Source: Malacoraja senta
Lineage: Eukaryota
NCBI GenBank assembly: GCA_038087875.1
Contig: CM075992.1
Span: 3,288,001-3,352,000 of the forward strand
DNA: 64,000 bases
Direction of reading: 5' to 3'
The position numbers and the translations under genes were made by a program. Below, one piece after another: positions 52,201 through 54,238 of the stretch (within the stretch, counting starts at the first letter, position 1; each line of letters begins with the position of its first letter). The notes under the pieces were generated by a model. It worked only from the letters and a program-made list of their open reading frames with translations. It had not been told where the DNA came from and did not search any database.

Positions 52201-54238
52201 AGAGATACAGAGCGGATACAGGCTCTTCGGATCATCGAGTATACGCCGACCAGCGATCCCCAGCACACCAACACTATCCTACACAGACTCGGGATAATTT
52301 ACAATTTTACCAAAGCCAATTAACCTACAAACCCGTACGTCTTTGGAATTTGGCAGAAAACTGGAGCACCCGGAGAAAATTCATGCAGGTCACGGGGAGA
52401 ACGTGAAAACTCCGTACAGAAAACACCCGTAGGCAGGATCAAACCCGGTCTCTGAAGCTGTAAGGTAGTAGCTCTACTGCTGCGCCACTGTGCCACCAGC
52501 ATTTGTTAAACATTTCAGTGCAATATTGAGGTGGGGTATGGAGTGCCGCCCAGCTATGGGCTCAACATCTTCAGCATTCAACATGGAGGCATCCGGGAGG
52601 AGGGAGCTGGTGTTGATGATGGATGCGATGGACGGGGAGCAAGGGCGGTAGGAGATGGAACTGGGGACCGTCCTACCATGCCGAAGGGCCTGTTTCCACA
52701 CTCTATGACTGGAGCTCACCGGGACTGTTGATGTACATGTGGATCGGCTTCTTGTTACTCTCGGACTGAAGGAATAGCAGTTGTGCGATGACCAAGCTGG
52801 CAATATTGTCGTCTATCTGAGAGAAACACACACAGTTAATGAAGTCGACTAACACGGCCAAAGTAAGGAGACACTCAAAACAAATAATACTCACAGGCCC
52901 CATGATGCAAATAATTCTCTCTCTCAGTAGCCTTGAGTAGATATCATAAGCTCGCTCCCCACGACCCTAGAAGGGAGAGATTACAGAGCACAGCTGACTG
53001 TTTGTTTGATGGAGCAATTAATTTTGAGTTGAACCCCAAATTCCACATCCCCTTCATTACCAACACCAGTCAGATCTTTCCAATATCTAAGCCTTGTCTC
53101 AAAAATCACGTTATTAAAACTCACAACGAGTGCCTTCACTATCTACATGTGATGATCCCATCACACTCCTGTTCAACTCGTGGGTGGTGCAGCTAGTAGA
53201 GCTGCTGCCTCACAGCGCCAGAGACCTGGGTTCAATCCTGCCCTCGGCTACTGTCTGTGTGGAGTTTGCATATTCTGCCTGTGACCACATGGGTTTCTTC
53301 CGGGTGCTCTCTTTTCCTCCCACTTCCCAAAGACGTGCCGGCAGTTGCCGGAAAATCGGTGGTGGACCTTTAATATATTGTCTTTTGCATTCACAGCTTG
53401 CAGTCATTTAAAGCTATTAAAAAGACCATTCTTTTTTATGATTCTTAAGGGAAAAAAGCGTTGCTATTTTGAGTGTGAAACTCTCAAGCTAAACCCCCCC
53501 CCCCATTAACAAGTTTGTTTGTATAACGGGATTCCCTCTAACTCAAAGCATCTTAAAAATGCAACTATTGCATTCCAGCAAAACTACCTGTACTGGAAGT
53601 GGCGTGTTATCTGATTCACAAGGGGGCTTGTTCCCCTTAGAGCACTTACAGTTTGCTCGATGACGATAGGGATTAATGGATGGCTACAGCCCGACGTCTG
53701 ATGGATCTTCCTGCACCCTGCCGCCAGCCACTTGGAACGGTGCACGAATGTCTGTGTAAAAACATATATACATGCATAGAAGTGTAGGTGAATATTGCCA
53801 TTGCCATTCCTCACCCTCAGCCTGTGCAGCACCATGGTCTCCCCTTGACCCAAACCCAATTCCAGTCCCTGGTTCCCAGTCCTCGCCCTCAGCCTGTATA
53901 GTCCCATTCCAAGTCCCTTGTTCCCATTCTCACCCTCAGCCTGTATAGCGCCATGGTCTCCCCTTGACTCAGTCCCATTCCCTTGTTCCTATTCCCAGTT
54001 CCAGACTCATTCCCAGTCCCATTGCCATTCCAATTCTCATTCCCCTTGCTCACCCTCAGCTTGTTCCCATTCCCCTGTCCATGTCCATGTCCATGCCCCC
54101 GTCCCTACCCCCAGCCTGTGCAGTGCCATCTTCTCCCCTAGACCCATTCCCAGTGCCAGTGCCGTTCCCGTTCCCGTTCCCAGTCTATTCCCATCCGGAA
54201 TGATTCCCTGTCCTCACCCCTAGCCTGTGCGCCGCCAT
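49065..54238 (-). CDS. CLPP: Mitochondrial ATP-dependent Clp protease proteolytic subunit, 7 coding exons, 248 aa
   Basis: [28 protein letters not shown], catalytic AASMG, MIHQP and MERDRYM; all phases consistent; minus-strand ATTAAA at 48990-48995. Confidence 0.97.
49580..50020 (+). mobile_element. CR1 3' fragment
   Basis: [19 protein letters not shown]...[12 protein letters not shown]. Confidence 0.8.
50577..50682 (-). CDS. CLPP: CLPP exon 6
   Basis: [35 protein letters not shown]; 106 nt. Confidence 0.95.
51681..51868 (-). CDS. CLPP: CLPP exon 5 (catalytic Ser and His)
   Basis: [15 protein letters not shown]...[11 protein letters not shown]...[10 protein letters not shown]; 188 nt. Confidence 0.95.
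52720..52816 (-). CDS. CLPP: CLPP exon 4
   Basis: [32 protein letters not shown]; 97 nt. Confidence 0.95.
52895..52966 (-). CDS. CLPP: CLPP exon 3
   Basis: [24 protein letters not shown]; 72 nt. Confidence 0.95.
53650..53751 (-). CDS. CLPP: CLPP exon 2
   Basis: [34 protein letters not shown]; 102 nt. Confidence 0.9.
54218..54238 (-). CDS. CLPP: CLPP exon 1, 21-nt coding part (MAAHRLG)
   Basis: AAGATGGCGGC (YY1/Kozak context) next to the CpG promoter; GGG|GTGAGG donor, phase 0. Confidence 0.72.

Follow-up and report, generated by a model that had tools for sequence, protein, structure and literature searches.

The window analyzed here is a 64,000-nt stretch of the genome of Malacoraja senta (contig CM075992.1), and it contains, on the minus strand, the skate gene for CLPP, the mitochondrial Clp protease subunit (PF00574). 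The initial annotation had described this gene as CLPP with a start micro-exon, an identification that is borne out by an intact coding sequence and by matches to close skate orthologs. When copy 1 of the start exon is joined to exons 2–7 (Table 1), a 747-nt coding sequence with one terminal stop is obtained, and its 248-aa product differs from the named CLPP proteins of Amblyraja, Leucoraja, and Rhinoraja by 7–10 residues.

Several other features are found in the window. Long retroelement open reading frames with a reverse transcriptase domain (PF00078, E-value 1e-14) lie at 61783–63846 on the plus strand and are interrupted by a stop at ~62965. A glycosyl hydrolase family 38 (alpha-mannosidase-type) gene has an exon on the minus strand at ~20300–21000 (PF01074, E-value 5e-8), and further exons of this gene seem to extend toward 5000. 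A 21-bp G-rich minisatellite of ~18 units occupies 35520–35905. The gene next to CLPP has a weak ADIP match (PF11559), below cutoff, at 39658–39948. Just below a GC-rich, promoter-like stretch at ~45690–45760, a 17-bp minisatellite of ~60 units (44614–45631, minus strand) presents 56 donor-like CAG/GTG(A/G)GA sites; from its sequence, it looks like a regular donor repeat of the human F7 type at the edge of the first exon of that next gene.

Table 1. Features of the CLPP locus, in positions of the window.
Feature	Position	Strand	Remarks
Promoter / short 5' leader rich in CpG, found above copy 1 only	54239..54330	-	GC box and ETS-type motif; predicted from sequence
TISU/YY1-type start element, perfect, at the ATG of copy 1	54231..54242	-	12/12 consensus match
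Coding exon 1 = copy 1 (MAAHRLG)	54218..54238	-	donor GT at 54217; same N-terminus in relatives' proteins
Intron 1, 466 nt, with GGGAAT-type G-rich hexamer lattice between copies	53752..54217	-	G-run count
Copy 2, full copy, MALHRLG	54109..54129	-	donor GT at 54108
Copy 3, hybrid of spacer-derived ATG and exon 3' end	54054..54070	-	donor GT at 54053; phase other than 0
Copy 4, full copy, MALYRLR	53934..53954	-	donor GT at 53933
Copy 5, MGLYRLR, 47-nt duplicate of copy 4 3' part, spacer-derived ATG	53887..53907	-	GC donor at 53886; TRF period 47
Copy 6, full copy, MVLHRLR	53815..53835	-	donor GT at 53814; would leave a 63-nt intron
CLPP exon 2, 102 nt (remaining presequence and mature protein start)	53650..53751	-	AG/GT-bounded; matches skate CLPP proteins
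CLPP exons 3–7	52966-52895, 52816-52720, 51868-51681, 50682-50577, 49225-49065	-	open 747-nt CDS

The first coding exon of CLPP is repeated within intron 1. Five units made of an ATG, 18 nt, and a donor were rechecked on the sequence, and each has the coordinates, peptide, and donor previously assigned to it; all five are 21 nt long and in phase 0 with exon 2. A degenerate exon pattern, built from the copies themselves, has 5 matches in the window versus 0.06 expected, and 0 of 100 shuffles reach 5; because the pattern was derived from the copies, this result speaks for repetition only, not for function. The proposal of six tandem copies of the start exon therefore holds for the repetition itself, but only four of them (1, 2, 4, and 6) are complete, i.e., three extra copies, whereas copies 3 and 5 are hybrids. 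An upstream flank, the leader, is common to the units starting at 54238, 54129, 53954, and 53835 only, which identifies these as full copies. The broken 17-nt copy reported at 54070–54054 is indeed present, but its ATG is spacer sequence and not an exon start: the 11-mer with which it begins recurs in the spacer at 53927, after copy 4. Similarly, the 8-mer that opens copy 5 at 53907 recurs in the spacers at 54022 and 53978. Since the ATG starts of copies 3 and 5 are identical to spacer sequence, both are best described as hybrids in which spacer sequence is joined to the end of the exon. The initial annotation had also overlooked two in-frame ATGs, at 54147 and 53978.

The array is irregular. 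Successive donors are separated by 109, 55, 120, 47, and 72 nt, with 63 nt left to the acceptor, and within the array TRF detects only the 47-nt pair and hexamers. Full copies differ pairwise at 4–11 of 39 nt and form two subtypes, one with copies 1 and 2 and the other with copies 4 and 6 (4 of 39 nt apart). The spacers consist of GGGAAT-type (GGAATG-type) hexamers, which supply many of the 21 ATGs of intron 1, and stretches of comparable hexamers are also present on unrelated contigs in the sequencing runs examined. An assembly artefact was rejected, as the copies have diverged and copy 6 was found in two other organisms; a transposon origin of the copies was also rejected, as there are no terminal repeats.

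Sequence features of a promoter are found at copy 1. The 90 nt above it contain 10 CpG, have 76% GC, and include one motif that we take to be a GC box and another presumably of the ETS type; above copies 4–6, there are 0–1 CpG and no GC box. The TISU consensus, a mammalian one taken from part of PMC3177215, is matched at 12 of 12 positions around the copy-1 ATG and at 4–9 of 12 in the other units, and the copy-1 element is the sole exact match in the window, where 0.02 were expected. In the passages of the literature that describe it, TISU lies just below the transcription start and is enriched in mitochondrial and housekeeping genes (PMC2518114, PMC3177215), and in human cells it suppresses leakage to later AUGs (PMC2518114). 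Copy 1 resembles these elements in having the exact 12-nt consensus in a mitochondrial gene (PMC2518114, PMC3177215); however, TISU was defined in mammals, and the skate element was matched by its consensus only.

The proteins of related species point to the same copy. The protein cluster to which the nearest CLPP belongs has 9 members, all of which were read; 7 are skate-like by name or sequence, and 2 come from non-skate rays. MAAHRLG, the peptide of copy 1, precedes exon 2 in 5 of the 7 skate-like proteins (those of Rhinoraja, Amblyraja, and Leucoraja, and the Logan proteins P0007 and P0008), and among the full-length Logan proteins it forms the start of 2 out of 3. The third, P0001, starts with MAAHRLR, residue 7 being its sole difference from P0007; it could reflect allelic variation, an error, or an exon end of the downstream type. 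Logan P0009 has no N-terminus. Peptides of copies 2–6 or of the retained intron were found in 0 of the 7 skate-like proteins of the cluster, and the three named skate proteins bear no "isoform" label; database proteins are models or assembled contigs, which drop rare isoforms. When longer proteins that keep the intron in frame were sought, the one candidate was the normal spliced form, and a search for short 5' fragments returned none. The 134-aa open frame, compared with 1.84 billion representatives, had two matches, both to multi-stretch repetitive proteins (one of them inspected). X2 and X5, two of the 18 runs listed as "RNA?", yielded short repeat matches only, with neither a CLPP transcript nor a junction read among them, and have no bearing on CLPP expression. 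Because a relative that has copy 6 (relative E) shares L10 and V34 with Amblyraja and Leucoraja, the three named skates presumably carry the array as well. Judging from these proteins, it is most likely that only copy 1 is used in the source species.

The 5' end of CLPP also varies among other proteins. In the Leucoraja model P0005, an upstream ATG extends the N-terminus by 42 aa, and the in-frame upstream reading of the window differs from this extension except in the last residues, so that it is not conserved. In sharks and rays, alternative 5' exons are annotated at the exon-2 acceptor (P0006, P0012, P0013, P0014, P0134, P0138, and P0149), and the CLPP model P0136 has a doubled LR; from these models, the exon-2 acceptor junction looks labile in cartilaginous fishes. 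The N-terminus of P0006 (Hypanus isoform X1), ...SKGHGARLYR, resembles what copies 4 and 6 encode in the -1 frame (SRGDHGA) together with their LYR. It may correspond to a degenerate exon-1 copy used in this stingray, and the likeness of ...SKGHGA... to SRGDHGA, a hint at the level of protein only, leaves room for a start-exon array that might be older than the skates.

The copies themselves hold traces of earlier states of the exon. The majority consensus of the five units, MALHRLR, is identical to the sequence ahead of exon 2 in P0129 from the electric ray Narcine, which is why the downstream copies look like relics of an earlier form of exon 1; it is also near to the M[AV]LQRLR of Hypanus, Hemitrygon, and Mobula and to the MLLQRL[RK] of sharks. 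Copy 1 has the derived state (A3 and G7), copy 2 shares G7 only, and copies 4–6 keep L3 and R7. Since A3 and G7 are common to Rhinoraja (Arhynchobatidae) and Amblyraja (Rajidae), copies 4 and 6 would predate the split between these two families. On this sequence comparison, the distal copies are probably older than the split, with gene conversion as an alternative.

Contigs of two relatives, E and F (from 2 of the 6 DNA-type runs listed), were compared with the array, the E contig spanning 53400–53881. The initial annotation had proposed retention of the ATG and donor in related species as a check, and the outcome is divided: relative F keeps both in copy 6, with two synonymous changes only, whereas in relative E the copy-6 donor has changed from GT to AT and residue 7 from R to W. 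Both relatives have one additional nucleotide between copy 6 and exon 2. Consequently, the observation that the reading frames opened at 53907 and 53835 run on into exon 2 without splicing is correct for the window but fails in E and F, where the 1-nt indel breaks the frame; a conserved retained-intron isoform was rejected on this ground. In relative F, one contig joins 53902 to 53952, and 53903–53951 are unmatched at that place; the body of copy 4 is, on the evidence of this contig, either missing or replaced. Several contigs of F fall on the top of the array, suggesting that this part is structured differently.

No sign of selection on the downstream copies was seen, with little power to see it: the tests are low-powered, and one copy, copy 6, was compared across species. 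Among the substitutions listed, copy 6 varies at 4 of 27 sites, versus 33 of 433 around it (Fisher P = 0.26). Retention of ATG and GT in three copies at 7–15% per-site divergence has a chance P of 0.09–0.3, and the share of synonymous changes among the independent changes between copies (4 of 7) has a P of 0.12–0.24.

Predicted U1 pairing is -9.8 kcal/mol for the copy-1 donor and -9.0 to -9.5 kcal/mol for the four extra GT donors; the GC donor at 53886 pairs most weakly (-5.1 kcal/mol). A comparable situation has been described for intron 7 of human F7, where, in the passages on its repeat, each of the repeated donors can function, yet splicing uses the most upstream one only, even against strengthened later ones (PMC1557585). 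In the human genes 6-16 and CBS, the next pseudo-sites, the second and third, are used too (PMC1557585), and for this reason some leak to the downstream CLPP donors is possible by analogy.

Taken together, these data make it quite probable that the array is a near-neutral tandem amplification of the CLPP exon edge, of the kind seen in F7 intron 7, in which copy 1 works and the downstream copies are silent, decaying pseudo-donors. Slippage or unequal crossing-over in the G-rich hexamer tract may repeatedly have copied the edge of exon 1 into intron 1 of the skate gene, the duplicated piece extending from the leader (~12–20 nt of it) through the 21 coding nucleotides to the donor. As the spacer briefly resembles the exon start, slippage could bring an ATG into register with no need for selection. 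With every duplication, the copy nearest the promoter would have remained the working exon, because the promoter and the perfect TISU are at copy 1 only and splicing takes the most upstream donor. This choice among repeated donors could depend on scanning, the cap, or G-runs, as in mammalian work. The downstream copies would persist as silent pseudo-donors that decay slowly and preserve older states of the exon. The initial annotation had left two readings side by side, alternative N-termini and neutral amplification of the exon edge; the second is favored by the copy-1 proteins, by the loss of donor and frame in relatives, and by retention at chance level.

A leaky control of CLPP dosage is unlikely, although part of the evidence fits it. 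Some transcripts from the normal start would be spliced at a downstream donor, the copy-1 ATG would then open a short uORF, and the result would be less CLPP or RNA decay, from which re-initiation at 54129 may rescue some protein. As had been claimed, read-through from the ATG at 54238 stops after 17 codons, and a 17-codon uORF was computed for every downstream donor, with an open ATG before 4 of the 5. Donor strengths are comparable, in 6-16 and CBS splicing also occurs at the second and third pseudo-sites according to the same passages (PMC1557585), and alternative 5' exons exist at the same acceptor in the other sharks and rays listed above. However, a matching isoform is absent among the skate proteins, TISU suppresses leakage to downstream AUGs in the mammalian cells described in part of PMC2518114, and the copy-6 donor is lost in relative E. 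Moreover, any downstream donor would place 4–17 ATGs ahead of exon 2, and such leakage, if present, could be splicing noise. Less probable still is a working switch in which, for example under mitochondrial stress, splicing would shift to a downstream donor, the copy-1 start would become a uORF, and initiation would take place at a spare start exon of ancestral type.

It is highly improbable that the G-run lattice is the functional part of the intron, serving a very short first exon as an intronic enhancer or as a G-quadruplex tract, with the exon copies as passengers of its expansion. Intron 1 does contain 32 G-runs (6.9 per 100 nt, versus 0–1.3 in introns 2–6), 7 of them within its first 70 nt. 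In passages of the literature, first introns often have a G-rich 5' end in species from human to frog (PMC2275096), and an effect of G triplets on duplicated donors is described (cited in PMC1919487). Against this, G4Hunter gives the intron a mean score of only 0.85, with the peak located in the promoter, removal of repeat units from F7 intron 7 left splicing unchanged in the part of PMC1557585 that reports it, and the same hexamers occur in unrelated contigs. This reading is largely compatible with neutral amplification.

The spliced alternative N-termini differ from that of copy 1 by 1–4 of ~32 presequence residues, which is within ortholog variation; their net charge is +5 to +6 and their helical moment 0.55–0.70, as compared with +3 to +6 and 0.47–0.66 in orthologs. 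A mitochondrial presequence is normally cleaved, and the mature protease would then be the same from any copy. Hence, although the three extra full copies still have an ATG in good -3/+4 context, phase 0, and a GT donor, and 4 of the 7 independent changes are synonymous, it is scarcely credible that these are selected alternative first exons giving different mitochondrial presequences in the style of variable first exons, as the copies are without promoter features, the few residues changed are ortholog-like in their properties and expected to be cleaved off, ATG and GT retention fits neutrality, and donor and frame are lost in relatives. Nothing was found in support of the selected presequences suggested by the initial annotation; minor use is possible.

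If neutral amplification is the right explanation, the CLPP array would be a natural record of the evolution of a start exon, in which the distal copies keep older residues and the working copy has gained a perfect TISU. It would also extend the "first donor wins" rule to pseudo-donors that each bring their own start codon. In practice, such an array can lead gene predictors to wrong N-termini. If the regulated shift were true, it would offer a simple route from a repeat to translational control of a mitochondrial quality-control protease.

In the open-access literature, nothing was found on an alternative first exon of CLPP and mitochondrial targeting, on the CLPP intron of skates, or on this repeat locus. 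The clustered protocadherins and UGT1A are variable first-exon arrays, and the CLPP copies resemble both in being tandem, phase-compatible first exons upstream of a shared acceptor. Three differences set them apart, however. The CLPP copies are without promoters of their own (as sequence features, CpG, GC box, and TISU occur at copy 1 only), they encode 7 near-identical residues and not distinct domains, and they are not conserved and show no purifying selection (the donor is lost in relative E, and power is low). As a variable first-exon array, the CLPP array fails.

Minisatellites at exon boundaries are a closer counterpart. In the passages of PMC1557585 on such repeats, they are described for intron 7 of human F7 (37 bp), intron 2 of the IFN-inducible 6-16 gene, intron 13 of CBS, LAMIN B2, and intron 4 of PDGF. 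As in the F7 type, the first unit of CLPP spans the exon–intron boundary, with the real donor inside it, and intron 1 has further copies of this donor, four with GT and one with GC. In addition, the known proteins, which for CLPP are those of relatives, appear to reflect the most upstream donor. The regular, near-identical monomers of the F7 type are not found in CLPP, whose units are irregular, old, and 10–25% diverged, and because of this irregularity the array is classed as a variant of that type. Unlike the F7 repeat, each full CLPP unit also holds the leader, the start codon, and a whole phase-0 coding exon, which is possible because the coding exon is only 21 nt long; the CLPP array is thus unusual in that its repeated unit includes the start codon.
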